A stretch of 51,120 bases of DNA. It comes from Chromera velia. Lineage: Eukaryota. The stretch covers positions 1 through 51,120 of the forward strand of contig JAHBMJ010000317.1 in assembly GCA_018398765.1 (NCBI GenBank), given 5' to 3'. The notes under the pieces were generated by a model. That model saw only the letters and a program-made list of their open reading frames with translations. It was not told where the DNA came from and did no database searches. Both the position numbers and the translations under genes were made by a program. Within the stretch, counting starts at the first letter, position 1; each line of letters starts with the position of its first letter. This document shows, one piece after another, positions 86 through 51,039 of this stretch.

Positions 86-313
86 GGTGCCAGGGGTGAC
101 TGAATCTGACGTCATCCTCAGAGGTGCCAGGGGTGACTGAATCTAACGTCATCCTCATAGGATCTGTATTTTCAATCATATGATACAGATACTTGTAAGA
201 CAGAGAAGGTTCGTTGTAGCTTATCATAATGTCAGTCTCTTAGCAGTCGTAATAACCTTGCATATGAGAGTCCGTGTGTCAGATAGTCGTCCAGATTAAT
301 CCATATTATTTCT
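86..313 (+). repeat. 5' LTR (portion alignable to the 3' LTR), containing a 37-bp tandem duplication at 86-122/123-159
   Basis: GGTGCCAGGGGTGACTGAATCTGACGTCATCCTCA...CCATATTATTTCT matches 5475-5665 with about 7 substitutions by manual alignment. Confidence 0.9.
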
Positions 314-330
314 GGTACGACGCCAGTGAG
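313..330 (+). promoter_or_regulatory. Primer-binding site (PBS) of the Copia element
   Basis: TGGTACGACGCCAGTGAG directly follows the 5' LTR and begins with TGG, the complement of tRNA CCA. Confidence 0.7.
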
Positions 331-360
331 AGTAAAGGAGGTTTGGAGTAGGCTGTGCAA

Positions 361-3300
361 ATGTCCGCAACGGACGGGAAGCTCGTCTTCCCTCTCTTCG
401 TAGACAAACCTGATAAAGACTTGGCGGTCAATGAGGTCAATACCTTTTCAAGGTTTTACGACTCCTTCTTTTCGATTTTGGATGGAAAAGTAGACCTTGA
501 CGGGGTGAAGCTGGATCGTTGGACATGCGACCAGCTCTATCGGTCAACAAAAGGACACCCCAGGGTAGGGGTGGTCATAGACAATGTATTTCAGAAGAGG
601 AAAGCGGGTGACTATGATGCTCCCAATGGGAGTACCGAGTATGATAAGTACAAAAAGGCCCTTATTGATGCCCTCAAGTCATCGGGGGAGGATAACGATG
701 AAAAGAAACACGATGAGGTAGAAAGAGAGTGGGAGACTTTCCCCGCATTGAGCAGATCAACCGGGACTGAGGTGGTTAATCAGTATAGAAACCTGGTAAC
801 CCGTACCGACAGTCTCAAAGGGGAAGTTCCCATGAGGAAGAGGGCCGATGCTGTACTCAGATCCCTGTTCCAGTCGACGCAGGATGTCTAGTCGGCAACT
901 CTCACATCCGCACAGCTGAAAGATCCAGACGTACTCATTCAAGAACTCATTGAGATGTGCAAGACAGTACACGGAGATGAGTCTGCCCCGCGGAAGGGGG
1001 GGCTTGCACCCAAGAAGCAGGGGGACATACGGGCCGTCGTGAAAGAAGAGATTGCGCTGTTTATTGGAGGTGGGATGGGACTCCCACGTAAAGAAAAACC
1101 CAACAACACCCGTCCTCCGAAGAAGTCAAACAACTCGTCTTAGCCAAAAGGCAACCCCGTCTCGAATTCCGAAAAGAAGTGTTGGCGTTGTGGTCAGAGC
1201 AGCTGCAAGAACCCCAGTACATGCGAATCATTCAAAGAGGGGAATGAGTGCAAGTGCTGTGGTCTTCTGGGCCACTGGAAGCCAACCTGCAGGTGCAGTA
1301 AGTGTATGGCAGAGAAGAATGCCGCCCCACTCAAGTCAAAGAGGAAACAAACAGTTAACCATGTTCGAGGAGATCCGGGTAACCCGGGTGAGTTCGTCAT
1401 TGGAGAGTATGATGTGCTCAACTTCCGCCCTTCCCCTCACACAGCGTTTGATTTCCAGCAATCATCAAACTGTGTCACATATCAGTATACGAACTGTCGG
1501 CATGATGTCGGACGGGCCATGGTAGACACGGGTACCGAGAGGGGAATGGGGAATCGTGAGAGGTTGCAGAGAGCTGGAGTTCTGGTTTGGGAACAGCCGT
1601 ACTCCGCGCGCGTCGGCGTCGCAAAGCGCAACGGCGATGGCCACCAAACGTCCGAGCGCGTTTGGATCAATGTCGATGCGATTGGCACCGTGATTCTGGA
1701 AGACGAGACGGGTGGGCTATTCCACACGTATCTGTACCTCACAGATGATGATGTTCCCACGTTGGTCACATATGATGCCTGCGCAGCGTTTGATAGGTCG
1801 GGCGAGACGCCGTCGTACTTTGATGTGCGAGACGTCCGTGGCATTATATATCGCGTCACTGTTGATGCACCGAATGGCCACTGCTGCTCTCGTATCCCTT
1901 CCTTTCCTCTCCCTGTCAATGCAAAGAAAAGGGAAGCAGAGTTCGACCGTGAGTGAGGTGGTGGTAGGCAGGCTCTGTGTATGCAGCGTGAGCTGCGTCG
2001 TTTGGACATGGAGGAGGCAAGAGTCGAGCACGATCGTCTCGGCATCCACTCGGGGGCTGAATATTTCCGTCTCACCCTCGAGGAGGACGGAAAGTCCATC
2101 ACAGCAGCCATGGCAGCAGAGATTACTGCCACTTGCCGGACTTGCCAGCAGAAGCAGGCAGTCAACAAGTCGTTGAGGGCAGCAACTCGAGAGAAGAGCC
2201 GGAGAAGCAAGGTGAAGGAATTCGGGGATGAGGTGTATTTGGACACGTGGTTTCCTGGGAATGAGGATGCAGAGGTTAGTGGGTTCCCGTGTGGGAATCT
2301 TTGGACATATCTCCACACTCGTAGCAAGTTTGACACTCCGATGCATGGCCGCTGCGATGCTGTAGATTCTTTGATGGATTGGATCGATTACTACGGTGTC
2401 GTTCCAAAGAAGATGCTCACAGACAGGGCCCCAGAGTTGATTGGGGGTAAGTTTATCGAAACCTGCAGGTCGTTCAGCCCACCCATCCTCCCAGAAAGGG
2501 CCCCGACTGGAATCAAAAGGATTTTGGGATTCGCTGAGAGACCTATCCGCACTCATCAGAATCAGGTCAGGGTGGCTCTGGACAGGTGTTTGGTTCCGAG
2601 TGAGGGGGGAAGATGGGGAGAGCGAATTCCCCATAGTCTTGCACATGAGATCAGCATAGCAGTAGCCATAGAAGGAGATAAGATTGTCCATCCCACTGAC
2701 AGAAAGAGTGCGTATGAGCGGAGGACCGGGGAAAAACCAGATCGTAAGTTTGCGTTAGGGGATTGGGTTATGATTCGTCACGGTCCTAAGGACCTTTCCT
2801 TCCCAGGCAAGCTTTGTATATTTCTCTACACTTGGTCCCCCTGTGTCACAGCACTCTTGTACTACAACGCACAGAAACACCGCATTCAGGTTTTCAACAC
2901 ACACCCTTTCCTCGTGGAGCCCTTGCACGATGGTCCACTTACGGGGTGGCGTATGGTGAAGAGAATCCTGGAGACCCCTGTGAAGGGAAGGCTTGTGTCT
3001 GGGGGTGAAAATGTGCTTTTGCCCTCTGCTCCGCAGTTTTCTGGTCAGAACCTTCCCGCCGTCCATCCAAAAGGTGGTAGGGCTCCCCCGCAGATCGGTG
3101 CGATTCAGGGGGGGGCAGCTGCTACTCAAGAGGACGGGGGGGGTGCAGAAGGCGCAGGAGGCGACGACTAAGATCTAGGGGTGGAAGTCCAGGTAGAGGT
3201 TCTACAGCAGGGAGCAGGCCCTCCGGGAGACGGCCAAAGGAAATACATAGGTTTGCTTGTGGAAGCGAATGGCAGGCGTCTTGTGATGATGCAGACAGGG

Positions 3301-5397
3301 AAAGCGTATCACAAGTCCATCCCTGTAGCATGGCTCCAGCCAGTGGGGGATGGGAGTAGGAAGTGGCGTGTAGAGGGAATAGCACCCAATCCCATTCGGA
3401 AACAGCAAGTGCTGCGTTATTTCGATTTCGTAGACGACCATCTGCCTGCCGAGATCGAATTCCAAGTATCCCCAGGCCCCCCTCCGATTCGTGTCGGTCC
3501 GTCCGCACAGCAGCAGGGTGTTGTGAATGAGGGGGTGCCGCCAGACGCGGGTGGGGATGCACCCGCAGCCCCTCACCCTGATGGCATTCCTCCTGATGAC
3601 TCTTTGTTTGGTTCTGACCTCCTCAGAAATCCTCAGCATGAGGGGGGGGCAGAACAAAGGTCAGTGCATTTGGAATCGTTGGAGGCGCTGGCAGCCTTTG
3701 ATTTCAAGAAAGGCTCCACCAACATTCCAGCAAAGGAGGAAGAGGTGAGGGAGGCGAAGTTCAATGAGGCGATGAGAGATGAGTGGCTCCAGAACATCTG
3801 TGGGCAGGAGGTGTTTAGGAGGGCGGTTCCGAGGGAAGAGGCTAAGATGGTGATAGATCTCGGCTGGAGGCTCACATGGAAGGAGAAGGAGGCAGAGAAA
3901 GGAAAGGGGAAGGAAAGAAAGTACAGAAGTCCGTCTCCCAGTCATTCTCCTCCCACAGCAACAAAGAGAGTGCCAAAAGCCCGATGCTTCGGGAAGGGCT
4001 TCCGGGACAAGAGAAAGATTGATACCTTCACAGGTACCCCTGTCCCCGCTCTGATTTTTTTCTGCATGATCTGGGCACTCGCGTGTGCTTTGCAGATTTT
4101 TGTGGGGGATGTGAAGGGGGCGTTCCTTCAGTCTACCGACACGAATGCAGAGAGAGTTTATGCGTGCATGCCTGTGTGGATGTCTCCGATCCCAGACGTG
4201 TGCCCCTATCCAGACATGAAGCCCGAGAATTGGGAGAGAGTGAAAGAGTACGCCAGATCTCTCTTGCCAGGACAGATCCGGGAGGTCGTTCGCGGTCTCT
4301 ACGGCATGCCTGTCTCGTCCAAACTTTTTGACAATAAGTGGGTTGGGATAACGAGACGGGCAGGGTTTGAGAGAATAGAGTTGGGGATTGCAGTTGATAA
4401 AAAGAAAAATGTTCTCATCAATTGGATTGATGACGTTTTTGGCCTGATTGCTTTTGGGCAGGTTGAGAGGGTGATGCGACATCTACAGGGGGAGATGGAG
4501 TTTGGGAAAATGACGAGGCTTGACATGGCTTCATACAAATTCAAGTATGCGGGAATGGACTTTGAAGGAGACAAAGGGGAGTGCAGAGTCTCGATGTCCT
4601 CGTATCTTGAGGGGGTGGATACAAACAAACTGTTCAGAGAATACAAGATCCCTCGGAGAGGAGTGGGGGGCACGTCTTTATGCAAAGAAAAGGATTTTCA
4701 TCTGCAGGAAGGTAAGCAACCTGATCTGTCTCTGAAAGACATCTACAGCAGTGTGATCGGGTGTTTGGGTTGGGGGGGACGTCTCTCTCCTTTCCGTCGT
4801 GTGTGGTACGATATTCTTTCTCGCTATAGGAAGACACCGACCCACAGGCATCTCGCGATTGCTGTCAGAATCCTGCACAAAATCAAGAAAGATCCAGAAG
4901 GTCTGAATTTCCACCGTCTGTCTCGCTCTCCTCTTCTCAAGATGGTTTTCTTCATTGATTCCTCTCATGAGAAAGACACATACGAAGGAAGCCATGCATG
5001 GATTGCTCTTCTGGTTGATCATGCCTGGAAGCCAGGAGATGAATTGTTTAACATTTTCGCATGGCGTTCGATGCGTTTGACCGTCAAGCTGGGCAGCTCC
5101 ACAGCTTCAGAATTGGTTGGGTTTGAGCAGTGCCTCAAGCGTGTGCCTCGACTGATTTCTTTTGGCCGGAATTTTCAGAAAGACATGCCGGTTCAGTTCT
5201 TGATTGACTGTAACCCTTTGCATGATCAGTTCAGATCGGGGGTGGCAGATTCAGACACAAGGATGCAGCATGTTCTCGACTGGTGCATTCAGAGATGCAA
5301 ACAATTGTCTGCCAGTGTTGTTTGGATCCCTTGTGAGATTCAGGCAGCCATTGCACTCACTAAGCCTATTGCTTTTGGTCAATCGATCTATGATTGA
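361..5397 (+). pseudogene. Copia gag-pol polyprotein in one reading frame, interrupted by 4 in-frame stops (889 TAG, 1141 TAG, 1954 TGA, 3169 TAA)
   Basis: ORFs 355, 955, 1306, 1981 and 3181 share one frame and the gaps between them are open. Motifs: CCHC knuckle CKCCGLLGHWKPTC (1249-1290); protease MVDTGT; integrase HDRLGIH...CRTC plus [21 protein letters not shown] (DDE); RT KARCFGKGF, GDVKGAFLQ, RGLYGMP, WIDD; RNase H FIDSS, STASEL, LIDCN, ALTKP. Confidence 0.92.
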
Positions 5398-5420
5398 AGT
5401 GTGGATCATTCGCCTGTCAT

Positions 5421-5431
5421 GAGGGGGTGAG
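5421..5431 (+). promoter_or_regulatory. Polypurine tract of the Copia element
   Basis: GAGGGGGTGAG lies just after the pol stop and before a TG-starting segment leading into the 3' LTR homology. Confidence 0.65.
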
Positions 5432-5432
5432 T

Positions 5433-5665
5433 TGTGAGTTAGATTCATGACAGTCTCAGAATGGAGATGTCAGGGGTGCCAGGGGTGACTGAATCTGACG
5501 TCATCCTCATAGGATCTGTATTATCAATCATATGATACAGATACCTGCAAGACAGAGAAGGTTCGTTGTAGCTTGTCATAATGTCAGTCTCTTAGCAGTC
5601 GTAATAACCTTGCATATGAGAGTCCGTGTGTCAGATAGTCGTCTAGATTAACCCATATTATTTCT
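5433..5665 (+). repeat. 3' LTR (start inferred from PPT + TG; 5474-5665 matches the 5' LTR)
   Basis: Direct-repeat identity with 123-313; the left boundary could be 5428 or 5433. Confidence 0.8.
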
Positions 5666-7555
5666 AAGAGCACCTTTTAGAAGTACTTTTAAACTAACTT
5701 CCTCGTGAACTTATTATTCAACTCAAAGTTTTAAACATCTTTCAACTCTAGTTTCAACCTTAGTTCTAGTCCTAGTTGTTATTGTACGTTTGTCTCTACT
5801 AGTGTTTCTACTAGACAGAAAGAGGAGGATCGTCTCAGCGCTCAGCAGCAACAGAAACTCAGTGTAATGCTTGAGCAGTGTGAGGAGAACGGAGGCCAGA
5901 CAATTTGCGTTGCTGACCTAAGGCTTCTAAGTGATTACAAGGCCATCACGAAGATTAGGTAAATATGGTGGTCTTTACTCCTGCTTTCGCTTCCTTTGTT
6001 TTGTGTGTTCATTTCAGACGGTCCACGTATTCATCCGAGAGACGCTGTCAGTTAGATAGGCACAGACACAAAGACGCACACACATACACATACGTCTGTG
6101 GTGGTTCTCTCAGACACATCTGACGTCCTTCTTGCTTCCCTCCTCTGAGAAATGCCGGGTGATGGACTAGGTGATAGACCAACTGAGTGTGAGAGACGCG
6201 AGAGAGATAGAGGGAGTGACCCAGTCCGTCGTTTCACCATTCATGCTAATTAAAAAATGAATGAAATCTGCGTGTATGGCACTGCACGTAGCGACCATCG
6301 CAAAAGGGGATTATAGGGACGAAGGCGAGTAGGCGGGCAAAGGGAAAAGGGGGCTCTCTTTTGTCCTATGTAAAGAGTGACAAGAAAGATGGATGCATGG
6401 ATGCAGACAGAAGAGCAGACAGAGGAGAAGTTCTTTAACTGGCTCTTTGACGATATCTAGGATGATATACATTTTGAAGCTTTAGTCGAAGCTAGTTTTG
6501 GTCAATCCTTTTGAGCGTCTACCAAGCTAAAAATGAAACTGGGATCCTAGATATGAATCATATGATTCAAACTCTAGTTGAAGCTAGTCATTTAACCTTT
6601 ATTTTTTTTTACATATACAATAAAATTTTGAAAAAAAAAAAAAGAATAGACGTTTTCAGATTTTTTTTTTTTACCACTGTGCATCGCCTAGTATATATTT
6701 AGGCTTTCCCTAATATAATAATATAAATATAATATAATATAATATATTCTCTCTATAACATAGAGTATATAATCGAAAAGAAAAAAAATAACTAAACAAT
6801 TGATGAAAAAAAGTATAGACTAGAAAAGAAGTATAGCTATTGCCTCTGTCGATGCCTCCTCTACGAGCCCTTCTGCAGTTGTTTCTTCTCATGTGGCTTA
6901 GCGATAGTGGCTGCCCCTTCTTTTGCTGCTACAACCAGTCAGGCAAAGGCCGCAGAGACTAGCGCAGAGCAGGAAGAATGAGAATTTTTCAGGGATTTTG
7001 GGAGGCTTAGGGAGTCATAGGACTAACGACATGTGAATGCGTGTGTGCGGATTGATATAGGGTAATGCATTGACTTCTGTACATAGAGGGACAACGCCGC
7101 CAGCCAGGGTGTGCCTCCGTGGTATAAAGTGAGTGAAGGGCACTTACATAATCAGTACAGTCCATGCAATTATGCAGAGATGGGAAATGCAAGCTTGAAT
7201 TTAGCAGGTTGATTTGAAGCTAGCAAAAACGGTTTGAGACAGAATTTCAAAGGCAAAAGAAAGCCGACCGTTTCATTAGAAATATAATATAAATTATATA
7301 ATATAATATATAATGTAGAATAATGTTCATAATTAAGTTTGTATTACATTACATTAAATTATATTATATAAGGGTTTTGTCTGAAATATAATATATATTG
7401 AATCCGAGCCTAGAATAGAATATTAAGTTAAACTTATTAAAATGTGCATGTACATCAAAATTGTAATTAAGAGCCTAGTTAAAAGCTTTATACTTAAAAT
7501 TGTTGCCCCCTTCAAGACTGAGTGAATTTTTAAATAAATTAAATTTAAGTGAAAT

Positions 7556-8127
7556 TGTTATATGGTACTTTGCACTCAGTAGAAGGCTCTTGGATTCGGG
7601 GACGTTTGGATATAAAGTAAGGAAGAGCACAAAGGAGATCAGAGTTTGGAGATGGGGCAAAAGATGTGCAAGGTCCAAGCACGCATGCATGCCACCAGAA
7701 TTGGCGCGCGTTGTGGCCCTGTTACACTCGCGCGGCCCGCTTGCACACGCCCGCCGCTTGGAGGGTTGCGCCGCCTTACGCGCGACCACATTCTCACGTA
7801 CCTAAAATTGAATTCGACCATATTCTCACTGAAATTGAATTTGACTTCGATCGCGGCCTGTCGCTGATTTCGATCGCAGCCTGTTGCATGCAGCTGCGTG
7901 GCGAGCCAGAAATACCATGAAATGCCAACTTAAATTTGAGAAATCCAAAATCTTGAAATCGCGCGTTGTGAGATTAAAACTTAGTTCACCAACTCAGAGT
8001 TTCGATCAACATAATCGCATCACACCAAACTTCAACTTCAGACCTCTTTTTTATAGATTGCCTTCTCAAGAGTCAACTGACAATGAAGTTTTTATTGTAC
8101 TCCCTAGTGCCAGAGTACGACAGAACA
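7556..8127 (+). repeat. 5' LTR of the non-autonomous element
   Basis: Gap-free alignment to 8717-9288, about 90% identity by manual count; TG...CA termini. Confidence 0.93.
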
Positions 8128-8716
8128 CGTGGTGACGCCAGCGAAAGAACGTCCAAGGCTGAACCAAAGATTAACGGAGACGGCAAGACGCCATCTATAT
8201 GTTGAAGGTCCGTTCTGCTCTTGTTTACCCTCTCTCCACAGAGAGACAAAGAGATTTTCGTACCTCTGTGAAGGATGCTTCTGCTCCTCTGTCTTCTGTT
8301 CAGTGTTCCTGTATTTCTGGGTCTGCAGGTCTCACGATATCTTTAACAAATGGAATTCTGCATTCAACTTGGAAGAAGATTGACGGAATGATTTAGGTAT
8401 AGAGAAGAAGAAAAGAGACGAGACAAAGAGGAGACGGGGAATCTTGAGATCTGTCTGATAGTGTGTAGGGACAGCGCCTGACATACCATGTCACTGTATC
8501 AAGTCTTTCTCCACCATCATTCTCTCTCAACAGAAACTGACCATTCGTTTCAGGAAGAGCATACCAGGAACAGTGCTACTTGCAAGTGTATCTCAGAAGA
8601 GAAAAAGCAGGGGAGACGTGTTATGAGGACTTTCAGCTGCATGCTAAAGAAGAATGCAGCCCTAGAAGAAGTATAATTAGACGGCCGTGGAATGCCGTCT
8701 TGAGCAGAAGGGGCCA

Positions 8717-9288
8717 TGTTATATGGTACTTTACACTCAGTAGAAGGTTTTTGGATTCGGGGACGTTTGGACACAAAGTAAAGAAGAGCACAAAGGAGAT
8801 CAGAGTTTGGAGACGGGGCAAAAGATGTGAAAGGTCCAGGCATGCATGCATGCCACCAGAATTGGTGCGCGTCGCGGCCCTGTTACGCTCGCGCGGCCTG
8901 CCTGCATGCGCCCGCCGCTTGGAGGGTCACGCTGCCTTACGCGCGACCATATTCTCACGTACTTGAAATTGAATTCGATTATATTCTCACTGAAATTGAA
9001 TTTAACTTCGATCGCGGCATGTCGCTGATTTCGATCACGGCCTATCACATGCAGCTGCGTGGCGAGCCAGAAATGCCGTGAAATGCCAACTCAAATTTAA
9101 GAAATGCAAAACCTTGAAATCGCGTGTTATGAGATTAAAACTTGGTTCACCAACTCAGGGCTTCGATCAACACAATTGCATCGCACCAAACTTCAACTTC
9201 AGACTTCTTCTTTATAGATTGCTTTCTCAAGAGTTAACTGACAGTGAAGTTTCTATTGTACTCTCTAGCGCCAGAGTACGACAGAACA
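8717..9288 (+). repeat. 3' LTR of the non-autonomous element
   Basis: Gap-free alignment to 7556-8127; TG...CA termini; followed by TSD AAAT. Confidence 0.93.
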
Positions 9289-9833
9289 AAATTCGTGAAT
9301 TTATGTAAATTTCAACAGCTGAGTGAATTTACATGAATTTAAGTGAACTTATAAGTGAATTTTTAATTAATTTGAAATACATATTTCTAGGCATATTTAC
9401 TTATAAATTTAAATTAGCCTAGAAATTGGCTTTAAATTTATGAATTGTAAAATGAATTCAAGACTAGATCGAATGTTATTCAGACGGTCTAGAGCGTGCG
9501 TAAATTGCAGCGTAATTAATTCATGCTAGACCCTAGGCCAGACCTAGATATACTGGGAAGGCCCTAGTCTGAGGGCAGAACAAATCAATCAACTAATCAA
9601 TCAGTCAATCAATCAATCATGCTTTACCGGGCGGTGCAAACACATGCACCAGCTACCACCGTGATACCAATATGATTACCAAACGAGTTACCAAAGTTCA
9701 CCTACATTGGTAATCATAAAATAATTTGGAATATGATGGTGATGATGATGATGATTTGGGGTGTGCAGCACTGACTATATATTGTAAGAATCTAGGTAAG
9801 AATATAGCAGCAAACAAACGATGCATGGAGCAT

Positions 9834-16954: not shown

Positions 16955-17890
16955 ATCTTTGCTCTGCGCAGCTCTTTTGTGCTCTTCCCTCCTCTAGTCT
17001 TTCCTTCTTTTTTTCCCTCTCTCTTTCTCTTCTCTTCCCTAACCTTCCCTTCCCTTCCCTTCCCTTCCGTTCACTTCCCTTGTTTTCTCTTCCTTCTCTT
17101 GCGCTCCCTCCCCTCCCCTTCCCTTCCCTTGTTTTTTCTTCCTTCTCTTGCACTCCCTCCCCTTCCCTTCCCTTCCCTGCCCTTGTTTTCTCTTCCTTCT
17201 CTTGCACTCCCTCCCCTTCCCTAGCTTCCTTTCCATTCTTCCTCTCTTGTCTTTTTTTCCTCTTCTCTTCCCTTCGTTCCCGCCTTCTTGCTGGTTCTCT
17301 CATTTTCACCTCTGGGTTTCTCTCTTCTCACCCCCCTTCTCTCCTACGTCATCATCTTCCTTTCTTTCCTGTTCGGCTGTACTTTTTTGTGTTCTCCTCT
17401 CTCCCTCTCCTCTCCTCTTCTCTCGTGTACATTCTGTCCTCTTGTCTGCTGTTCTCCACCCCCTTCGACTCTTTCCTCTTTTCTTTTGCCCTCTCGGACC
17501 TTCGTTCTATTCTTTTCTCCTGTCCCCCGTTCTCTTTCCTTTCTATTCTTTCCCTTCCCTTCCCTTCGTCTTCTCTCCTCTCCTTATCTCTTCTCTTCTC
17601 TTCTCTTCTCTTTTCTTTTCTTCTCTTCTCAGCTGCTCTCTTGTCTGCCTTCCTATTCTTTTCTCGTCTCTCGTTTCTTCTTTCCTCCTCGCTTCCTAGA
17701 TCGCCTCTCTGCTCCTCTTCCCTCTTCTCCCCTCGTCTCCTCCGTCCTCTCCTCCTCTCTCCTGCGCCTCTCTCTCGTCTCCTCCACTCTACTTTTAGTA
17801 CTTTACTCTCTTCTCTTCCCTTCTCTTCATTCTCCTCTCCTGATTTCTCCGAATCAAGTTTCCTGTCAGGCTCTTCTCTTCTTCTCTTTT
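16955..17890. repeat. ~0.9 kb polypyrimidine/polypurine low-complexity tract with degenerate ~50-bp tandem units
   Basis: Almost only C/T on the + strand; the unit TTGTTTTCTCTTCCTTCTCTTGCRCTCCCTCCCC recurs three times at ~17080-17220. Confidence 0.9.
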
Positions 17891-19622
17891 CAAGTTTCCC
17901 ATTCCTTCAAGTTGTTTCGCAAGTTGTCCGTTTGTGTTCGTTTCGATGTATATTATTCTAACTACTTTCGAATCAAAGTTTCGATCATTTTCATTACTTT
18001 TTAAATCCTTTTTAAATTCACTAACTCTTTGACAGTATTTTTTTCCCGTGTATACTAGCGTGCATGTATATAGGTTGGCTAGGAACTTAGCCTACAGGTT
18101 TAATTTTTTTTAATACTGTTTATTGATTGTGTCTAGGATTTCCAGTGTTCAGTGCTGGTATAAGGAACGTATAGCAGCAGCTAAAACTATAACCAGAGAA
18201 TATCATCATATCATGAGATTGAGATAAAAAAATGTACGTTGAATCAAAAACATAACGTAACGTTGTGTATTATGTGTAATCGTCGCTGGACTGAGCGGAC
18301 TCTATCACACCCCCTGTTAATAGCAATCATATAGCCAGTAAAACTTAGAATGTTTAACATTCATGATATAAAAAATAACTGAATTTAAACTTACGCAAAT
18401 CTATAGAGATAGGGGACATTTTTTTAGTATGAGTTTCTAGCAGCGTTGCCTTATAAGACTTAACTTAAATATAGTTAAATTTACAACTATGGGGGTGTTA
18501 AATCTCTAAACTAGTCTCTTAAAAAAAAATATAGCTACAGATGGTCCTAGACATGGTCCGGTCCCTATAAACTTTAATTTAAGTGTGGGACTTGTCATAT
18601 TAACTTTAGATACTACTAAAGACCAGCCTAGTCACCAGCTAGGTTACTAGCCTTATACTGACAGCATGATGCAAAGATTTTACGAATTCTCACTTTCACG
18701 CATCTCCAGTTGAAGTGTGGATGTCTTTCTTTGATCAACCCACCGCCTCATTGCTCCAAGGACATCAATGCTCCCCCCTTTTCAGTTCCTCCTCTGCGTG
18801 TTTCAATTTGTTTTTGCGCCATCTCAGCCGACCGCCTTCTGAAGGCAGGCTGAGAGTGCATTCCCTCCAGAAACTCAACCGATCCCTGCACGACTGCCTG
18901 CACTGACTGCCCCTGCTGGCGATTTACGATTTCGTGTTTCCTCCACGCAGTCTGCCATGATGCTTTCCCTTCCCCCTCTCTCCCTCATGAAAGAAGCTGC
19001 ATGCCATACCGATCTTCTTTCTTCCCTCCATTGCAGAAAGGAAAGAAATGAAGGAACGCACTTCGCGCATCGCGTCGAAATAACGATTTGTCGCTCGTCG
19101 CTGGTTGTTTGACAGCCGGACTGTGGGGGGTGTTAGTGAACTGAGTGAATACTGTGGTATCATGTGCATGCACGCGTGGCATACAGATGGATGAAAAGGT
19201 ACGTCGGGGAATTCTTGTCGGATAAATAGAACGACCACATGAATGTCGGACAGCGTTTGCCCCCTCCAAAAAACTTTTTTTTTTTCTCCCATCCAGCAAC
19301 TCCCGCATAAGCTTCCATCCCGCTCTACCGCTCTCACGTCTCCTTTTCTTTTCTTTCCTTTCTCTTCATCGCTTGTGATTTTTCATTCGGGGTCCTTCCA
19401 CTTCCATCCTTCCAAGTTTGAACCCTGCCACCAATCAAATTTCCCGTCTCCCGACTTGTAATTTCCCCCCCTCTTGTCCCGCCTCCCATTGGCTTCGAGC
19501 ATCTCACACACTCACGCAGTCTTTCTCCTTCACTCACTCCATGCACTTAAGACGAAATGAAAAAGAACCAAAGAAAAGAAGGAAAACAACGGACAGACAG
19601 ACGGAGACCAACAGTTCGTCGG

Positions 19623-22489: not shown

Positions 22490-23185
22490 ATGGATTTCGA
22501 CGGACCTGCTACAGGAGAGTTCGACGCTGCCCCAGGTGGATTTGACATCAGTGATGCTCTTGGGGGTTCTCCGGGAGGGGCGGGGGAGGACTCGCCCTCT
22601 CCGGATCAGCAGCAGGCTCCTGCTGCAGCTGACTGGGGTGCAATGGATGATATGATGGGGTTCACTGAACCCGCACAGCACGCAAATGGTCCGAGCAGCT
22701 ACGAACCCCCCGCACCAATGGAGGGGGTTGCAGCGGAAGAGGTGGAGAAAAACGGTACGACGCAGTATTTCAAGATGGACTCTGCGAATGATCAGAGCCC
22801 TGCAGGTGCAGAGGCAGCACAGAGGGCAGCAGAGAAGACGATTGAGGATGAGGAGAGGGAGAGGCAGGAGGCGTTGCTTCTCGAAAAATCTCATGCAGAG
22901 GAAAAACAACGCACAAAAGTGAGAGAAGAAGCAAATGAGTACAGGGAGAAGTGGTATTCTCAGAGACGGGAAGCAATTGAGAAACGAAAGAAAAGCAACA
23001 GGTTGGAGGAAGAGGAGACCTCCGCCTCCAGAGGGGAGGGCACGTCTTCAGACCCCACTGCTCCGTGCAACTGGGAGCGCACGCTCTCGTACATCGACTT
23101 CTCAAAGGAGAAGCACAACAGAGACACCTCGAGAATGAAGACGATTCTGTTCCAATTGAAGAGTGGGGGATTGCGGCGACCCTGA
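22490..23185 (+). CDS. CLC: Clathrin light chain
   Basis: Intronless 231-aa ORF with acidic N-terminus, coiled coil REEANEYREKWYSQRREAIEKRKKSNR, and hallmark C-terminus NWERTLSYIDF...RDTSRMKTILFQLK. Confidence 0.92.
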   Translation: MDFDGPATGEFDAAPGGFDISDALGGSPGGAGEDSPSPDQQQAPAAADWGAMDDMMGFTEPAQHANGPSSYEPPAPMEGVAAEEVEKNGTTQYFKMDSANDQSPAGAEAAQRAAEKTIEDEERERQEALLLEKSHAEEKQRTKVREEANEYREKWYSQRREAIEKRKKSNRLEEEETSASRGEGTSSDPTAPCNWERTLSYIDFSKEKHNRDTSRMKTILFQLKSGGLRRP

Positions 23186-23575: not shown

Positions 23576-25223
23576 GGGGGGGGGGGGTTGAGTTCATGTC
23601 TTGTGAATGCGTGCATGTATCTGCGTTCTGCCCTCCTTTCTTTGAATGCTCATTCTTTCCTTCCGTCTCTCCTTCTCCGAAAAAGATGTCGTCATACGGA
23701 GGGAGGGAGAGGGAAGGGGGCAAAAAGAAAAAAAGGGAGGGAGGGAGAGGAGGGGGTCTGTTGATCCACCCAGTCACTTCCTTCCTTCCCTTTTCCATCC
23801 ATCATCTTACCTAGGCGGTGTGTCACCGGAGTGTTTTGTTCGCGCATCTTTCGTTCTTTTCCTCCGTCGGTCTCCCCTTTGATGCCCGTTTCGTCTCCCT
23901 CCGTTTGTCTGTCTCAACATGAATGACACCACAGAGGATGCTGTGATGGTCCGATGGACGGCTCATTCTTCCCTCCCTTCCTATTTCGCCTTAATTTTCC
24001 ATAATTCCATTGTGCCTGCCCCCTTGCAACGCTTCTGGTTCCTTCCGGCACATGTACGCTCATTTGTGTGTGCAAGTTGGGGCTTCTCTCTCTCTCTCTC
24101 TGTCTTTTCCGGCAAGGAGGGAGGGAAACAAGAAGGGATAGAAGTCGCTTCACCACTCACTTTGTTTCTCTTACCTGTCCTGTCTCTATTCCACACCCAC
24201 CCCCCACTAACGAATTCCTTCTACAGGAGAAGCAAAGAAGCAGCGAGGATGAGCCTTCTTTCCTGCTTTTTCCGTGTCTGTGTGTTTCATTGACTGATTC
24301 GCTACACCTGTGCAGAGGAGGAAAGGGCCGAGTTACGCACCGTCATGCAGTATTTTCTCCCTCATGCTTGCCTTGTCTGTATTCTCTGCTACTCCACTCG
24401 GAAGAAGAAGGACACAAAGACAGACACAGACGGTTCGTTTCAAGGAAGCCCCTTAAAGAACGTGACAGGGGGTAGGTAGACAGACAGGCCGACAAGGCAC
24501 ACATGCACAGAGAGAGAGAGAGACCTTACTACACCCTTCCCCTTCCCCCCGTCTCCACAATGGCCCCACGATTTGAATCTGTTCGTTCCGCAGTCTTCCA
24601 ACGTCGTCCCCGTCCGTTCTGTGAGATTCTCCTCCTCTTCCCTCCTCCCACTCGAATCCAAGCAATGCAAACAGGCATGCCAGTAAGAGTGAGTGCGGGT
24701 GTGTGGGGAGGCTGCGTGTCCGTCCTTCCTTCCTTCTCCTTAAGGGAGAGAGTAAAAAGAGAAGGCAGGAAGGAAAGAACGCATCGATCAAGCCTGCCTG
24801 GAGACGGAGCCTCAATTCTCGCGTCAGCACGGAACTATTCAAACCCCACTCCGCTCTCCTGATCAATCCCCTTTCTGGTCAGATCAGATCCGACTTCAAG
24901 TCCTCAACTGACTTGCCACTGTGTTTCTTCGCCTCGGTGTTGACAGCCCTCCTCGGTGGGCTTTTCTTTCTATGAAACAGAGGTTTGCGGAGGGAAGGAG
25001 ATTGCTTAAGGGATTGCAATGCATCGATTGCATGGAAGCTCGGTGAACAGTCTGAACAGTCTTGCAAGGGTGTGATCTGGGAAAGTTTGTATACGTCTGT
25101 ATGAAAGTCTGCATGGATGCATGATCGATGTGCAGACACAGAAAGAGCTTCAGACTATAACTATAGGACCATGAGTTCGAAACTATATAAAGAATTAGAA
25201 TTCCTTTTTAATAATGTGCTGAC

Positions 25224-25460
25224 CTAGGCGCTGCACATAAGAAAAAAAAAGAAAAAAAAAAGTGGGAGAGCCCTAATTTTTTTTTCTTTTTTTTTTATTT
25301 CAAGCTAGTGCCTCCAAAAAAAAAAAAATCTCTTTCAACTCTCAAACTTACTTTTCTATATAAGATGTGTACATGACTTTTGACCTTAAAAAAAAAAAAA
25401 GAAAAGTACCTTGGGGAGGCCTATTTTTTTTTTTTTTTTTAATGTACATGCGGCACCTAG
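25224..25460. mobile_element. 237-bp MITE with CTAGG termini and 8-bp TSD
   Basis: TSD GTGCTGAC at 25216-25223 and 25461-25468; left end CTAGGCGCTGCACAT versus right-end reverse complement CTAGGTGCCGCATGT; interior of A/T homopolymers. Confidence 0.88.
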
Positions 25461-26020
25461 GTGCTGACAGTGTTGTATGCATAAATATCCTAGCCTGGAT
25501 CCTAGCCTAGATTGATATCAGCTTAGACACCTGTTTAATAGAACTTGAATCTTAGTAAATCCTAGTTTGAATCTAGACTAATAGATCTAGACTTGGATAT
25601 TAGTATGACAATCTGGCTTGAATCTGCATGTGGTGTCATAAACTTTACTAAATATTACAATCTAACGAATCGTAATGATTCTAATTATAAAGTTGTCGTA
25701 TAATGTCATATAATGTCCACACTGGCAGACTTTTCAAATTAATGTTGACAAATATTAATAAATTTACTAGTAACTTAGTGTTTTTCACGCAACTTTGCAC
25801 ACTCCCTGCAATACTCATACAACATAATACAACACTTGAACAATGGTTGTTTGTCTGGTTTAGTCTAGTTAAGGGGGTAATAAATAAATAAAAATAAATA
25901 AATAAAAAGTTTTCTTCTATACGTTTTCTTTTTTTCTTTCTGGTGTACGGCTTAGAACTCCTATATTTACTTCATAAACACTTTCTTTAAATAAACCTTC
26001 ATATGCGTATTTCGTTCAAT

Positions 26021-31725: not shown

Positions 31726-33566
31726 GATGCCTTCGACTGTAAAGAGATAGGGTCCTCTTGCAGCAGCAGCAGCACGAGTGGAGGTAGCGAGGCACAACGA
31801 GAGCTGGAGCGAAAAAGGCACAAATGAATCTCCGGAGCGAGGGGAGAGACGGATCTTCCTTTTATTTGAGACGTCGGGTTCTGCAACTTCTACCTGCTCC
31901 TTTCAATCTGTCAACAGAAGTTTTTCTCAGTCAACAGAAGTCCAACTATCCTGCTTCGATTGTAGACTGTTCAGCGCAAAGGTATCGTAAAATATGTATA
32001 TATGATTGGTCGAGAGTTGTTGAGAGTAGGGATTGAGTTCTTCAGTCAGGTACAGTCATGTACAGTCAGGTTCAGTCTGTGATCATATTCTGAAAAAAAA
32101 AAAAAATCTGGTCGTTCATGCATGCGCATTATTGCGCAGTTTGTGCGAAGGCCTATACAGCTATACAAGTGAGTGCGCGCGCTTTGCGCGCGGAAGTGAC
32201 CAAACGCGCGGAAGTAACTAAGGTCTTGTCACCCGACTCTTGTGACTGTGTTAATTATGACGTACGGGCTAAAGGAAAACGTTAAAAAACATAATCATGC
32301 AGTATTACGATCTGATTACTAAATCTTTTCCTGAGTTACTATTGGTATCCAAATCCATCAATTACACCTTCACTGAACTGAATGCATTTAATATCATTAT
32401 GACTTTAAAAAATTATGTATTCAATCAATCAACTAGTCAATTAAATAAGAGCTGTATCATAAAATATTCTAAAATTCATTAGACTTACGGCTAAACACAT
32501 TCTGTAACCTTTCTTAGAGGATACTTTTTGATAAATGCTTTGTATACCAACTATGGAACTCATCGATCGATCAATAGTCAGTCAAAAAAATTTAAAAAAG
32601 TTTTGTAATCTGGTATAAATTTTCCTAAATTTTCTCAAACAGTTTGATTATAAAAGCTTTTTATAACTGTATTCAATAAATTAATGCCGATCGATATTGA
32701 TGATCAACTTATGGATCAAGTATGATCAAGTCAAGGGAATTTATCATGCAATACCATTCAGGCGCCATCATAAAAAAAATGTATAAAAGAGTGATGTTTA
32801 ATAAATGGCGGTCGATGTTGATGATCGAGTACAATCGTATCGAGGAAACTTATTCTGAAATAACTTTCAGACACTGTTATGAAAAAACATGTAAAATAAG
32901 AGGTATACATCCGGAGAGAGAAACAAAAAGGGGGAAGAGAATAAAGAAAGCAGTGATAGAAAGAAAGAAGAAACACAGAACAGATAAAGAAGACAGAAGA
33001 GGTGATGGGAGAAAAGATAGAAGAGCAGAAAAGCGAAATATCGAAGGTTATCAGGATAACAAGTTATTAAAGACAGTCCTTGGATAGGGCGGCCCAGTCA
33101 GAACTTTTCAGTGAACATAGGTAAAGTTTAACAGAAAGATCAAAATTCGGGAAATAAACTAAGTCAGGCAGACAGAATAGGCACCTAGCTAGGATAATGA
33201 GAAAGCAGTCAAACAGACAGGGAGGCAGAACTTTGAGCACACTCAGAAAAGAAAATAAAATTAGAAATATGGTCAGGCACACAAGAAGGCATCCCTGCAT
33301 GACAGCCAACAGGCAGATAGGCAGGAATATGCTGAGTCGTGCCGGAAGGAAACGTCAAAACGGAAGCAGAGTGGGATCATCGCAACTTCTGAATCTCTCA
33401 ATTTGTTTGTAAGGTGGCATGTAAAGATATGTACAGTTGAGAGGTCAGATAAGAGGTCGGAATTGAGAGAAATCGCATGAGAGAGGCAAGATAAGAAAAG
33501 TGAAATGCAAGTGAAGAGATGAGATGTGAGTAAACAGGGTCACCGAGAGAGTAGCCTGTGTCTCTA

Positions 33567-34286: not shown

Positions 34287-35212
34287 CAGGAAGGTGGGGG
34301 CACCTTTGTTCTTTTAGGGATCTGTCCAGCAGGGAGGAAGCTGAGGGCACCTTTGTTCTTTTAGAGATCTGTCCAGCAGGAAAGAAGCTGAGGGCATCTT
34401 TGTTCTTTCAAGGATCTGTTCAGCAGGAAGGAAGCTGGGAGCACTTTTATTCTTCTTAGGATCTGTCCAGCAGGAAGGAAGGTGGGGGCACCTTTGTTAT
34501 TTTTTGGATTTGTTCAGCAGGAAGGAAGGTAAGGCCACCTTTATTCTTTTTAGGGTCTGCTCAGCAGGAAGGAAGCTAGGGGCACCTTTGTTCGATTTCT
34601 GATCTGTCTTGCAGGAAGGAAGCTGGGAGCACCTTTGTTCGATTTCTGATCTGTCTTATAGGAAGCAAGGTGGGGGCACCTTTGTTCGATTTCTGATCTG
34701 TCTTGCAGGAAGGAAGATGGGGGCACCTTTGTGCTTTTACGATCTGTCCAGCAGGAAGGAAGGTGGGGGCACCTTTGTGCTTTTAGGGATCTGTCCAGTA
34801 GGAAGGCAGCTAGAGGCACCTTTGTTCTTTTTTAGATTTGTCCAGAAGGAAGGAAGGTGGGGGCACCTTTGTTCTTTTGGGGATGTGCGCAACAGAAAGA
34901 AAGGTAGGGGCACCTTTGTTCTTTTTAGGATCTGTCTAGCAGGAAAGAAGGTGGAAGCAGATTTGTTCTTTTACGGATCTGTCCAACAGGAAAGAAGGTG
35001 GGGGCACCTTTGTTCTTTTAGGGATCTGTCTAGCAGGAAGGAAGGTGGGGGCACCTTTGTTCTTTTTAGGGTCTGCTCAGCAGGAAAGAAGGTAGGGGCA
35101 CCTTCGTTCTTTTAGGGATCTGTCCAGCAGGAAGGAAGGTGGGGGCACCTTTGTTCTTTTCAGGATCTGTCCAGCAGGAAGGAGGCTGGGGGCACCTTTG
35201 TTCTTCTAGGAT
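34287..35212. repeat. 47-bp minisatellite, about 20 tandem copies
   Basis: Consensus approximately GCAGGAAGGAAGGTGGGGGCACCTTTGTTCTTTTAGGGATCTGTCCA; CACCTTTGTT recurs at ~47-bp period (34301, 34348 ... 34583, 34630, 34677). Confidence 0.97.
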
Positions 35213-35986
35213 ACCCCATCTTGAATTGACTTGACAATCGCATGACCTGTTGGTCTTTTTTTTGCTTTCTTCAAACCTTTTTATACCCATAATGCGTCTT
35301 GTTGCTCACGATACTAGATACGGTGCTAGCATATGTTATCTCAGGCTGTATAGCTCTACTTATAGCTCTAGTTTACTTTGGCTCTAGTCATTTTAACTAG
35401 ATTTGCTGATAAATTTTGTTTAGATAAGTGCATCTGAAGTTTTAAGTGTATCAAACTGAGTATCAAAGAGAGAAAAAAAACTAATTTTGAATGAAATTTA
35501 TCTTCAATTTTTGTTTTTTTGCCGTAAGAACGGCTAAGGTACTAGGCCTGTAACTAGGAGAAAAAAATCTTGGTAGGAAATTCTAAGCTCTAGTGTATAA
35601 GGTCTATAGCCTACGCTATAGTAAGAGCAAGAGAACATGCACTGTCATACAGAGTTTGTAGGCCCAGAAAACTATTTATGCATAATCCTGGGTATTAATC
35701 CACTAATATAAGTGATAAGTGATTTAGTGCTAAAAATTAGTGGTGCCGTTGAACATTATCGCCGTTTTGTCTTGTAGTACCTCTATAGAATTAAGTGCTG
35801 GAGAAGTTCAACGTCCACGCCGCTGTGTCATTCATGCAGTTGCTAGCAAAGTTGCATCATGTGAAAAAAACTAGAAAAAAAAATAACCCTTTTCAGTTAC
35901 TTTTTTTTCCTGTGATACGGCTTGCTAAAATTCAAGTCATCTAACACCTATATACAAATATTTGTTTTATTGTTTTTAAACATTTT

Positions 35987-37101
35987 CTAGGGGTGGACAC
36001 TAAAGTTTTTTTTATAATATAGTTTGCTTGCAAAACTTTAAAATTTAATTTTAAAACTTTAAAAGTAAACATGCAACCAGACATACAAAAGCTCATTTAA
36101 AAGACATTGCTAGAGAAGTTGGTTTCATTTATATTATTGCAGACAAAGTTGATGCTTTATAAATTACTAGATATACTATAGTTATGCAAAAGCTTTTTAA
36201 ATTTGAAAACGATGTATGTAATGCATTACTATATTAATTACAATTTTCACAAAAATTCCTAGAAACAACGTTAATATAAATTCAAACAACCGGTAGCTTT
36301 GGTCCTCTGGGATCCTTCTCCAAGAAATCCAGTTCTTTTTTTCCAACAATCACTTCTCTTAACAGACGGTGGCGGCTGTTTGCAACTACTACTCCCCCGG
36401 GTCTCTTTTCGATGTATGCCAACGAGTCAAATTGTGTTTCCCTTTCATCTGTCCTCTTTTTTCTTCTTCTCTTTTTGTGCAATCATTCGTGCCTTTAAAT
36501 GCAGATAAGGCAAAGTTAAGTTCGTTTATGTTGTGTGCATTTATGTTGATCGCCTATTGCATGCAGAAAATCTATGTAGTACTCCTCAATCGCTGGACTC
36601 CTTGCCATGTGTTTAATGAATGTCGTGAGCACAAACTCTGTATACATGATTCTTGAATTCAATCTCTTGATGGCTTCATACATAGACTTTCTTTATGTGC
36701 GTTCTTAGGCGCGTTCTTGTGTCAAGTCGCTGGATGAAAGGGAATTCCTGCGTTGCATACCTGATCTGAAATCCATTGATTCTAATGATTGCGAGTGTTT
36801 ACTTCCCGGTGCAAGTACATCCGAACTTTTGATCTGTGATGTCATCCGATCACTTTTCTTCCGATGCTAGATCTGATCGATCTCGCTGATGATTGTTTTC
36901 AATGTGAACATAAATTTCAACCTAAAGAGACTAAGCTTGTGCCATCTTCTATGTAGTTTAGTTATGAGTCTAACTTATGACTGACTTAATTAACGATCTA
37001 CTCAAAAGCTGATTGAAAAATATTTTTTAAAAATAAAGTCTAAAGGACAAAAAAAAAACTTTAACAAAAAAAAATTTTAAAACTTTAGTGTCCAACCCTA
37101 G
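35987..37101. mobile_element. 1.1 kb non-autonomous TIR DNA transposon with CTAGG termini and 8-bp TSD (hAT/P-like TSD length)
   Basis: 23-bp TIRs CTAGGGGTGGACACTAAAGTTTT (35987-36009) and 37079-37101 match 22/23; TSD AACATTTT at 35979-35986 and 37102-37109. Confidence 0.9.
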
Positions 37102-37193
37102 AACATTTTATATAATTTTATTGCTATAACTTTTTTTATCTTACTTATCAAAAAATCTGAAATGTTATATGTTATATATCGCCTGGCACATCA

Positions 37194-37194
<1 letters not shown>

Positions 37195-37230
<36 letters not shown>

Positions 37231-37242
37231 CACATATATATA
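37195..37242. repeat. (TA)n microsatellite
   Basis: Direct reading. Confidence 0.95.
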
Positions 37243-37347
37243 TGAATTTCTATATAAATGCACTGCAAGCTAGACTGCAAGGTAATTATGGGAGTTACTC
37301 ACGCTGTCGGTCTCGGTCCTGAATACATGGATGACGTGTTACTTCTG

Positions 37348-40300: not shown

Positions 40301-42054
40301 GAGTCTCAGAGACCGGAAGGCTAGACAGGATTGAAGGAGAAGAAGGAGCGGAGCCTTTGGAGGCGACCCCTAGTTTTTCTGAAGCTTCAGCAGCAGAGGG
40401 TATGAGCGAGATGACGCTGTCGGTGTGATGCTGCTGCTGTTGTTTACTCACTGCACTCACAGCCGCATTCGGAATGAAAGGCACGTGTTGCCCACCCATC
40501 TGGCCAGAGGGCGACCTCATCTCTTTTGAAGCCATGGAAGGTGCCTGGGAGTCCATAGAACCCCCCCCCATCTCTGAGGAGATTGAGGGCGGCCGCAGCT
40601 GCTGCAGTGTCTCCTCCAATTCCACGGGGCCCCAGTTCGTCGTGTTGAGGTTCTGTCGGGGATTCTTGCTGGAGCCGTACAGCTGCAAGCAGGCAGGTGT
40701 GTGTTGTATTTCAGGCAAGTGGCGTCGATGTCACGCGATTAAATCATAAGATATGTAGTGTCATTGACAAGTAATTATTCAAATGACGAGAGTTATTGTC
40801 TCTGCCAAAGTCCACAAGGAGACGAAATCCATGAAAGGCACATATTTTGCTGATCGCATTTCCACTTGGGAAGGGAAAGGTTATCACAATTAAGACTGGA
40901 CGGGCAGAGAACCCACTTTGATTGCAATTTTCTGTCTTGCCCCGGTGGGTGCCGTGAGGATTTCGAAGAGGTCGTTAAGCATGTCGGCTGTGTTGCGGGA
41001 CTTCATCAGGAACTCCAGCATCTCCTGCATGCTTGCGGTGGGTGGACAGACAACATATCTATCGATCGATGTATCAATTGCTCCTGTCCCCCTGCACTTA
41101 TGCCTCTATGCTGGGGGTTGCCGGGAAATGCATCAAAGTTCCACCGAGCACCTCCGTAGAAACAGTGAAGCGGAGATCTAAAAGAAATATGCTCCTCCCG
41201 TCCTAATCGGAGGTACGTTCGATAAGAAAAAGGAACTTGCCACAAAAGAAAATGCAGAAAAAATGTTTGGGCGCATCAAACGTTATTTCTCTCTCACCCC
41301 CCCATGGACGAACGAACCATTTCTTCCTCAAAGCAGAGACTGTGCGTCCAGATTCTCCTCCACCACCTGCACACGCACGTGCACGACAATGTGACGAAGA
41401 TTCTCAAAGGTATCGAGAGAGGTTTCTCAAAAGGGAGCTCCTGTACAAATGAAAAGAGGGAGATCCCGGGCGCTTTCAAATACCAACAGTCACACAGACA
41501 AAGAAACCTTCCTACGCATACCGTTCTGACCTTCCCCTTCTCCCGACAGACCTCTCAAAATGGTCCCCGAGTGTCATGTCGATAGGGCTGTTCGTCATGG
41601 CAACCTCCTGAAAGGAAAGCAGCAATGGTAGAGGGAAGACATCAAGCAAGGCACAATAAAGGGGGGTTCATGTCAAGATGAGCAAGCCAAGATCTCTCTT
41701 GAGAGGGGCCAGACACTCTGTATTAGTTGAAACAAATCACTTCTTTCTGTCCATGTCCACTCAGACTCCGATGCAAGAAAACCAGAACCCCTAAGCAGGT
41801 CACTGATGTTCCGTGAGTTTCCGTTGATTGTCGTGATTTCAATCATCTTCCTACAAGAAAAAATTTTGCTCCAACTGACTGACGGCCTTGAGACGGAACA
41901 CGTCCTCTTCAGACAGTCCCCCCTCTCCCTCTGAGTCCACTCCTCTCCACTTCTTCCTGAGACTCCCGAGGAGATATTCGATCTCTCCCTCCACGCGGTC
42001 GGGGTCAACAGGGTCGTCGCCTCCTCTGTCGGGGCCCTGCATGAGAGAGAGAGG

Positions 42055-42120
<66 letters not shown>

Positions 42121-49673: not shown

Positions 49674-51039
49674 GATCACCAACTCAGAGAGGGACTGTTA
49701 GACTGGAGGCTTGAATCGTCTCTCTTCTGTTCTGTTCGATTCCCCTAAGTTTGTTATGACAAAAGCATTCGACCTCCTTTCAATGAGATCAGTCGATGAC
49801 GAGACCCACACAAGATCGTGGAGCTTTGGGCCTTCGTTCAGATTGAGTTTTCGTGTCGCGAGCTTGAATGCCTTCAAGGTCGGTCAAAGAATTACGCTGT
49901 ATCGCCTCGGGGGGCAGCTCAGCTCTGCTGAGATCAGCCGAGAGGCCCTGAGATCGCACGCACTCGCATAACGCATTTTTTCATTTTCGGGGGGGNGGGG
50001 GGGGGGGGGTCGCTTCTTTCTCCGTCTGTCACGGTGTCGCCCGAATTCCAAAATGTGCCCCTCAAGCAACTCGCACGGAGCCGCGATCGCATTACTTCGG
50101 ACATGCGTGCCCCTCAAGTAACTCGCACGGAGTTGCAAGTGCATTCGCGCGGTCCCGAAAAGCATACTTCGTGCGCGTTGCCGTGGCCCAAGCCCCCGAT
50201 GGTGTGCATCAATCAAATTTGCAGACCCCCTAAAGGGCCCCCCGAGGCACTCACCCAACTGGTTGGGTGTATCTCGTACATATATAGAGCTTCATGAAAT
50301 TTAGCTGCCATGCATGCACTCGCGTCACTGGGAGTGCACCCCAGATCTGACGTAAGCAAGCTTGCGAACGGCCCCGGAAAGCAAGAAAAATTACAACTAG
50401 TTCACCATGATGCAGTGCCACGCTATATGTAGCTGATTGAAGCCACGCAGAAAGTTGCACTCACATACAGTCAGGGCTAGACTCAGGTAGAGTCAGGGTG
50501 GGGGCATTACTAGGCGTTACCTGGCATTATCCAGACGTATGAAAGATTTAATATGTTTTTCTTAAAAAATATGGTAGAATGAAGACTAAATTTAAGAAAA
50601 TTTAAATAAATCTGTGACATAATTAATTTTCTTATATGAACTATCCTTTATTTTTTGTATAAAAAGCCGAAAAAATGTTTATAAATTAATTAAATGGATC
50701 TGAAATTTACAGGGCTAAATCTATAAACAAATTTATATACAAATTTTATAACTTGTTATATCATTGACTTAGTAAAAAATTTAATGCAAAGACTTAATCA
50801 ATAAATAATTCTTTAATGCTTACTATGGTTTGAACATTGGTTTCATTTATTATGTGGCAATCTTCAAAGTATGTTCACTGCGTTAAGTTCATCTGTTTCA
50901 AGATCAACGACCATCATCTCATTGCTCTTGATTTGTAGACAAAGATCCATAAAACGCGGGACGGAAGGAGAGAAAGAAGGGGTCTCTCTCTCCCCCGTTC
51001 TCGCTTTCTCTCTCTCTTTCTTTCTCTCTTTCTCTATGT

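Follow-up and report, generated by a model that had tools for sequence, protein, structure and literature searches.

C-to-T-biased divergence on both strands of an LTR pair and neighbouring repeats in the alveolate Chromera velia

The two long terminal repeats (LTRs) of a short retrotransposon in Chromera velia, an alga that is related to the malaria parasites but lives free, have diverged after insertion mostly by C to T changes on both strands, and both the changes between the pair and those polarised on the 3' LTR follow a pattern that is alike in three repeat families. The order of contexts is CpG > CpA ~ CpT > CpC. These observations come from a 51,120-nucleotide stretch of genomic DNA (GenBank assembly GCA_018398765.1, contig JAHBMJ010000317.1, positions 1 to 51,120), which we refer to in full as the window. 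The explanation that we prefer, and to which we give about an even chance, is that silenced repeats, rather than the genome as a whole, suffer cytosine mutation on both strands, likely via broad-context methylation followed by deamination. Repeat-directed mutation of this sort has been described chiefly in fungi.

The whole element spans 1,733 bp, and its parts and flanking duplications are as follows.

7552..7555, + strand: target-site duplication AAAT, left, 4 bp
7556..8127, + strand: 5' LTR (LTR1), 572 bp, with TG...CA ends and an internal 33-bp duplication
8128..8716, + strand: internal region, 589 bp, with no recognised coding domain; other copies align to it
8717..9288, + strand: 3' LTR (LTR2), 572 bp, with TG...CA ends and an internal 33-bp duplication at 8949-9012
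9289..9292, + strand: target-site duplication AAAT, right, 4 bp

At the local base composition, a 4-bp target duplication would match by chance about 1% of the time. Judging from motifs read in the sequence, a stretch resembling a primer-binding site directly follows LTR1 and a purine-rich tract precedes LTR2. A Pfam search with the longest open reading frame (ORF) of the 589-bp internal region gave no match, and no tRNA genes were found within the 51-kb window. The element at 7556..9288 thus appears to be a non-coding, non-autonomous LTR retrotransposon with a putative primer-binding site, which we take to be TRIM/LARD-like. Further genomic copies are evident from a public DNA run (X1), of which 157 and 68 contigs align in two alignments, and the family is diverse, many contigs being less than 90% alike. 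About 100 bp before LTR2, at 8610-8625, a purine tract is followed by a stretch resembling an LTR start; elsewhere in the family a similar tract adjoins the LTR directly. Upstream of the element, at 7327-7448, summed contig depth in run X1 reaches 2000-3100, far over the surroundings, as would fit an AT-rich repeat in many copies or matches of low complexity. Runs presumed to be RNA match the stretch in short pieces only, and a scan of metagenomes for the LTR motif returned eight loci, all eight being chance matches of 19-26 bp.

Realignment of LTR1 (7556-8127) with LTR2 (8717-9288) is gap-free over 572 bp and yields 52 transitions, 3 transversions and no indels, the same counts that had been given by an earlier, sequence-only reading of this DNA. 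The probability of 3 or fewer transversions out of 55 is 8e-7 at a transition/transversion ratio (Ts/Tv) of 2, 1.6e-4 at 3, 0.012 at 5 and 0.075 at 7. The differences are real, since two public DNA runs contain contigs identical to both LTRs and the internal region over long stretches (7628-7846, 7824-8046, 8017-8215, 8339-8716 and 8876-9203, with no other letters), a check of the longest contig pieces only that covers most of both copies, not each base; assembly error is rejected on these grounds. Both strands have been hit (32 C/T and 20 G/A differences), and at the differing sites LTR1 carries 15 T and 11 A, LTR2 17 T and 9 A, in keeping with the earlier remark that the process is not strand-specific. 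The changes are distributed evenly along the LTRs, with both strands mixed inside each copy and no sign of clustering. At three sites (7746, 7767 and 7885), the same three that had been pointed out before, TG in one LTR stands opposite CA in the other.

When C/G is assumed to be ancestral, the 52 transitions fall in CpG (21), CpA (15), CpT (12) and CpC (4) contexts, which reproduces the earlier tally of 21, 15 and, for CpT and CpC together, 16. Per available site, this amounts to 21/90 (0.23) for CpG, 15/81 (0.19) for CpA, 12/67 (0.18) for CpT and 4/57 (0.07) for CpC; the effect of the 3' neighbour is not significant (chi-square p=0.09), nor is that of the 5' neighbour (p=0.37). Ordinary 5mCpG decay alone is rejected as the source, because 31 of the 52 transitions lie outside CpG and the CpG observed/expected ratio in the LTRs is 1.1, that is, without CpG depletion. 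APOBEC editing of cDNA acts on one strand and before integration, so that both LTRs share the edits, and it leaves a 5' motif; it is likewise rejected here, where the differences are between LTRs, both strands are hit and no 5' preference is seen.

The direction of change was read from contigs aligned on LTR2, a place being counted where at least 55% of the depth shows another letter; the family majority is the summed contig depth, LTR1 included, with few other contigs at some places (2 at 9099-9129). LTR2 carries minority letters at 30 places in run X1 (25 C>T/G>A, 3 reverse transitions and 2 transversions) and at 33 places in a second run, X2 (27, 3 and 3), and the 28 rows passing in both runs alike divide 23:3:2. 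On the LTR1 side the corresponding split is 14:3:2 among the 19 rows listed inside the element. Corrected for site counts, C>T exceeds the reverse change in LTR2 by a 7.8-fold rate bias (p=3e-5). Polarised changes in LTR2 therefore lean towards C>T/G>A (25:3) and are not balanced with T>C/A>G, as the sequence-only reading had predicted. The 25 polarised letters lie in CpG (13), CpA (7), CpT (5) and CpC (0) contexts, with CpG favoured about twofold (p=0.04). The process nevertheless reaches beyond CpG, another point of that reading, with non-CpG C>T at 12 of about 205 sites exceeding reverse transitions at 3 of 277 (p=0.006). Ten of the 25 derived LTR2 letters are common to both LTRs, which suggests that the parent copy had probably decayed before moving.

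Carried back to the 52 pair transitions, this polarisation assigns 15 as LTR2-derived C>T and 3 as LTR2-derived reversals; 23 more are unlisted and have G/C in LTR2, and we take these to be C>T changes of LTR1. The other 11 are unlisted with A/T in LTR2 (out of 26 LTR2 A/T sites), among which 3 look like LTR1 reversals and 2, judged by the internal 33-bp duplication, like LTR2 C>T. The ratio of C>T to reverse changes in the pair thus ranges from 38:14 to 46:6. Reverse transitions (6 to 14) are more numerous than transversions (3), an excess that cytosine deamination does not explain. Family-wide, the differing places comprise 169 transitions and 34 transversions.

Three other repeats in the window bear on whether the bias is peculiar to this element.

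118..5665, + strand: Copia-type LTR retrotransposon, with matched LTR stretches at 118-313 and 5470-5665; outer ends approximate
7072..7244, no strand assigned: dispersed-repeat fragment in the left flank of the element
34288..35210, no strand assigned: 47-bp tandem array of about 20 units, near CpG-free, lying between two AT islands and used as the in-window control

The 196-bp LTR stretches of the Copia element differ by 7 transitions and 1 transversion, and its frame at 352-5397 (1,681 codons) holds four internal stops, one of which might be natural, with no frameshift. The polyprotein is highly divergent and gave no match in a Pfam search; all ten of its relatives (10/10) were found from Chromera velia, in line with the alveolate, non-fungal host proposed earlier, and a fungal origin of the contig is rejected on the same evidence. 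In the dispersed fragment, the 19 differences listed against other copies are transitions without exception, the window carrying A/T at 14 of them and G at 5. The bias therefore extends past the LTR pair, as these two neighbouring repeats attest. The sequence-only reading had spoken of a linked LTR pair, and linkage seems not to matter: 3-4 stops per approximately 134 single C>T/G>A stop routes in the Copia ORF (2-3%) compare with about 4% per C in its LTRs, on small numbers, and with rates so similar no special load is seen on linked LTRs.

The 47-bp array behaves otherwise. In 16 of its approximately 20 units, compared with the majority letter and with irregular and terminal units left out, all differences comprise 40 C>T/G>A, 14 reverse transitions and 35 transversions (Ts/Tv 54:35), or 16, 7 and 18 as distinct events (Ts/Tv 23:18). 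The C>T excess has p=9e-4 on all events and 0.09 on distinct ones, and Ts/Tv differs from that of the LTR pair at p ~1e-5. The many transversions indicate that the genome does not make only transitions, and the far weaker skew tells against a simple reading in which all repeats are alike. Short local duplications, taken as a background control, held 3 substitutions in total.

The element sits between the first two of seven AT islands, none of which is assigned a strand.

5666..7555: island on the element's left side, rich in AT, TpA and CTAG; GC 0.38, 9 CTAG per kb
9289..9830: island on the element's right side, rich in AT and CTAG; GC 0.35, 17 CTAG per kb
17790..18900: AT island
25000..26000: AT island
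32050..33300: AT island
35230..37300: AT island
50400..50960: AT island

A decayed short tandem motif runs on across the insertion site of the LTR element. Host gene-rich stretches strongly avoid TpA (observed/expected 0.39) and CTAG (0.21), whereas in 28 segments of 200 bp with less than 38% GC (GC 0.31) TpA stands at 0.91; in the islands CpA shows no depletion (0.98). The seven hand-picked islands carry about ten times as much CTAG per kb (68 in 8.4 kb) as gene-rich DNA does (25 in 30.6 kb), and every letter occurs next to the island sites. When C>T change is simulated with the measured rates, TpA rises to 0.78-0.84 but CTAG stays at about 1 per kb, so that the CTAG excess is not reproduced; a simulated CpA-only rule gives 5-7 CTAG per kb, against the 8-9 seen, but erases the CpA that the islands keep. 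Transposon relics in the islands are not borne out: six-frame read-through of six of them (36 frames, all but 9289-9830) against Pfam yielded nothing at the curated cut-off, and a search for relatives of the ORF-like frame at 32200-33048 found 0 matches among 1.84 billion representatives. That frame is part of a stretch at 32200-33087 on the + strand which has fewer stops than its neighbours, is rich in K, I, Y and N and resembles a gene in decay.

An equilibrium GC of 0.11 (CI 0.02-0.30) follows from the polarised spectrum or, in the worst case, one of 0.28 (CI 0.16-0.43). Fourfold-site GC is 0.46-0.65 in four host ORF stretches and 0.49-0.51 in five other gene-region stretches, well above 0.11-0.28, which points indirectly to a restriction of the process to repeats. 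Neutral GC in excess of the mutational equilibrium is common in eukaryotes, and this weakens the argument. Among the host genes in the window are one for clathrin light chain at 22490-23185 on the + strand and an intron-rich insulinase (peptidase M16) gene at about 42000-48800 on the - strand. A search for relatives of the clathrin light chain returned the protein itself alone, and one with an insulinase exon gave no match.

How far the bias is confined to repeats is what separates our preferred explanation from an account that we think improbable but still give appreciable weight, namely that mutation throughout the genome is strongly biased towards transitions and from GC to AT, that transposons simply record this bias, and that selection or GC-biased gene conversion keeps up the GC of gene-rich DNA. 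Ordinary nuclear DNA of Bigelowiella natans has a Ts/Tv of 7 and an AT bias of 2.65 (10.64898/2026.01.13.699255), and under such a baseline the LTR pair has P=0.075 for its transversion count and P=0.04 for 25/28; the worst-case polarisation of 38:14 fits (P=0.62), while the best case of 46:6 rejects the baseline (P=0.009). That the pair lies only marginally outside this range is the main reason why a genome-wide bias keeps its place, and it would also accommodate the surplus of reverse transitions over transversions, the lack of a strong context preference and the 34 transversions beside 169 transitions family-wide. It sits poorly with the 47-bp array, where 35 transversions stand against 14 reverse transitions, and with the sharp compositional split inside 51 kb, the AT islands adjoining transposons. 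An origin of the differences before insertion, in an element that recombination or gene conversion pieced together from two older subfamilies and whose LTRs were never identical, is very unlikely. The family is diverse enough for it (many contigs below 90% alike), and some LTR1 letters occur in almost no other copy; yet the target-site duplication is intact, no indel separates the LTRs though there are many in other copies, where the LTRs differ, an A or T in LTR2 is mostly the minority letter, a second LTR pair is equally skewed, and a mosaic would merely shift the bias back in time.

Among mechanisms that act on repeats, true repeat-induced point mutation (RIP), where a homology-sensing process finds duplicates and episodically, perhaps at a sexual stage, leaves clusters of C-to-T changes in them, would account for both-strand C>T without indels, for stops without frameshifts, and for AT-rich islands with TpA and CTAG excess, to whose CTAG density the CpA-only simulation comes near. 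Neurospora RIP prefers CpA. The CpA-centred context of fungal RIP was not found, CpG leading at 0.23 against 0.19 for CpA in the pair and by 13/7/5/0 in the polarised set; this top rank of CpG, the undepleted CpA of the islands, the even spread along LTRs with strands mixed per copy, and linked LTRs not clearly harder hit than the Copia ORF make true RIP unlikely, and DNMT4/RID is seemingly confined to fungi, with none listed for Chromera (PMC12344493). Because the outcome is RIP-like but the context is not, we do not class the process as RIP. Equally hard to favour, and in our view slightly less probable still, is a cytidine deaminase recruited to repeat chromatin that mutates unmethylated C on either strand without 5mC. 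It would suit the weak context preference and the listing for Chromera of neither a DNA-type DNMT (PMC12344493) nor an MBD gene (PMC5890265), and a deaminase has been proposed for the targeted hypermutation in Bigelowiella (10.64898/2026.01.13.699255). At the 5' neighbours, however, none of the TC, CC or WRC motifs is favoured (p=0.37), and the roughly twofold favouring of CpG in the polarised set (p=0.04) also speaks against it.

The process that we prefer would run as follows. LTRs identical at insertion would, as parts of silenced repeats, become cytosine-methylated in several contexts; the methylated bases would then be deaminated and left unrepaired, giving C:G-to-T:A changes on both strands. 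The process would act on integrated chromosomal DNA, across whole elements, and would be confined to repeats or repeat-rich domains, where repeated rounds may produce AT-rich islands. Overall it would amount to a mitotic, broad-context version of RIP. What stands of the repeat-directed methylation and deamination defence proposed in the earlier reading is thus the C>T bias, on both strands, beyond CpG and in several repeats; the context is led by CpG instead of being centred on CpA, and linkage of the LTRs seems not to matter.

Published inventories offer few enzymes for such a process. Supplementary Table 1 of PMC12344493 lists for Chromera velia no DNMT1, CMT, DIM2, DNMT3, DRM, DNMT4, DNMT5 or DNMT6 and four DNMT2, and no methyltransferase for Vitrella; the table is visibly incomplete, with nothing but zeros for Phaeodactylum, for example, so the absence of an enzyme from it is weak evidence. 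The supplement of PMC5890265 gives 5 DNA_methylase genes and 0 MBD genes for Chromera, and 0 for Vitrella. The four DNMT2-type genes are the only C5-methyltransferase candidates for Chromera found in print in these sources, and DNMT2 enzymes are described as chiefly tRNA enzymes (PMC9246332). No chromerid deaminase is named in PMC3239186, and Chromera is absent from those PMC9998398 supplements searched. The term RIP does not occur in the main text of the Chromera genome paper, which puts transposons at about 30 Mb in Chromera and 1.5 Mb in Vitrella (PMC4501334). An earlier remark that no such system had been described in the group agrees with our search of the open-access literature, subscription journals lying outside it, which found no report of hypermutation, RIP included, or of 5mC in chromerids. 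A bolder proposal, possible but rather doubtful, is that Chromera velia evolved by itself a cytosine hypermutation directed at transposons, which relies neither on fungal RID nor on any canonical DNA methyltransferase but on an expanded DNMT2-type family or a deaminase, and which carves AT-rich, CTAG-marked repeat graveyards; it would be the first RIP-like defence in the apicomplexan lineage. If real, a repeat-directed C>T process in a chromerid for which only DNMT2-type methyltransferases are listed would allow the action of such enzymes on DNA to be tested directly, and LTR-based ages in the Chromera genome would then be overestimates.

The nearest known counterpart is fungal RIP, as in Neurospora crassa and other Ascomycota (RID/DNMT4, DIM-2), which likewise makes C:G>T:A changes on both strands of repeats with few transversions or indels, and likewise leaves nonsense codons without frameshifts and AT-rich islands. 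Almost all changes in RIP are C:G>T:A, and here they account for 25 of the 30 LTR2 minority letters and 38 to 46 of the 52 pair transitions; in Neurospora, C>T makes up 91.8% of the mutations that duplicates acquire before meiosis (PMC7296669). Unlike fungal RIP, the changes in Chromera occur in a non-fungal host, in a broad context led by CpG, with no sign of clustering or linkage and with no RID or DIM-2 listed (PMC12344493). The Dim2-dependent mitotic mutation of Zymoseptoria tritici (PMC8016269) also produces C>T and does not need sex; it is confined to repeats, as we suppose for Chromera, but CpA takes more than 98% of its changes and CpG escapes, whereas in Chromera CpG leads, followed by CpA and CpT, and no Dim2 is listed. 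Passive 5mC decay of plant transposons (CG, CHG and CHH) shares the transitions in all contexts with CpG highest, and is faster in transposons than in introns. Wheat transposons, however, have a Ts/Tv of 2.8 against 17 in the Chromera LTR pair (431:156 against 52:3, Fisher p=2e-4; wheat counts from PMC2996936), and no MET1, CMT or DRM is listed for Chromera. The repeat hypermutation of Pucciniomycotina (PMC3318451) is another RIP-like C>T pattern, deduced from repeat alignments, with a CpG-containing target and an unproven mechanism; its target is strictly TpCpG, while TCG in the Chromera LTR pair (4/22) is hit no more than other contexts. Bigelowiella natans (10.64898/2026.01.13.699255) provides a case of transition hypermutation in a non-fungal SAR protist, targeted to integrated viral DNA; there the direction is opposite (A:T>G:C), the context is strictly TpA, and the mutations were seen directly in mutation-accumulation lines.
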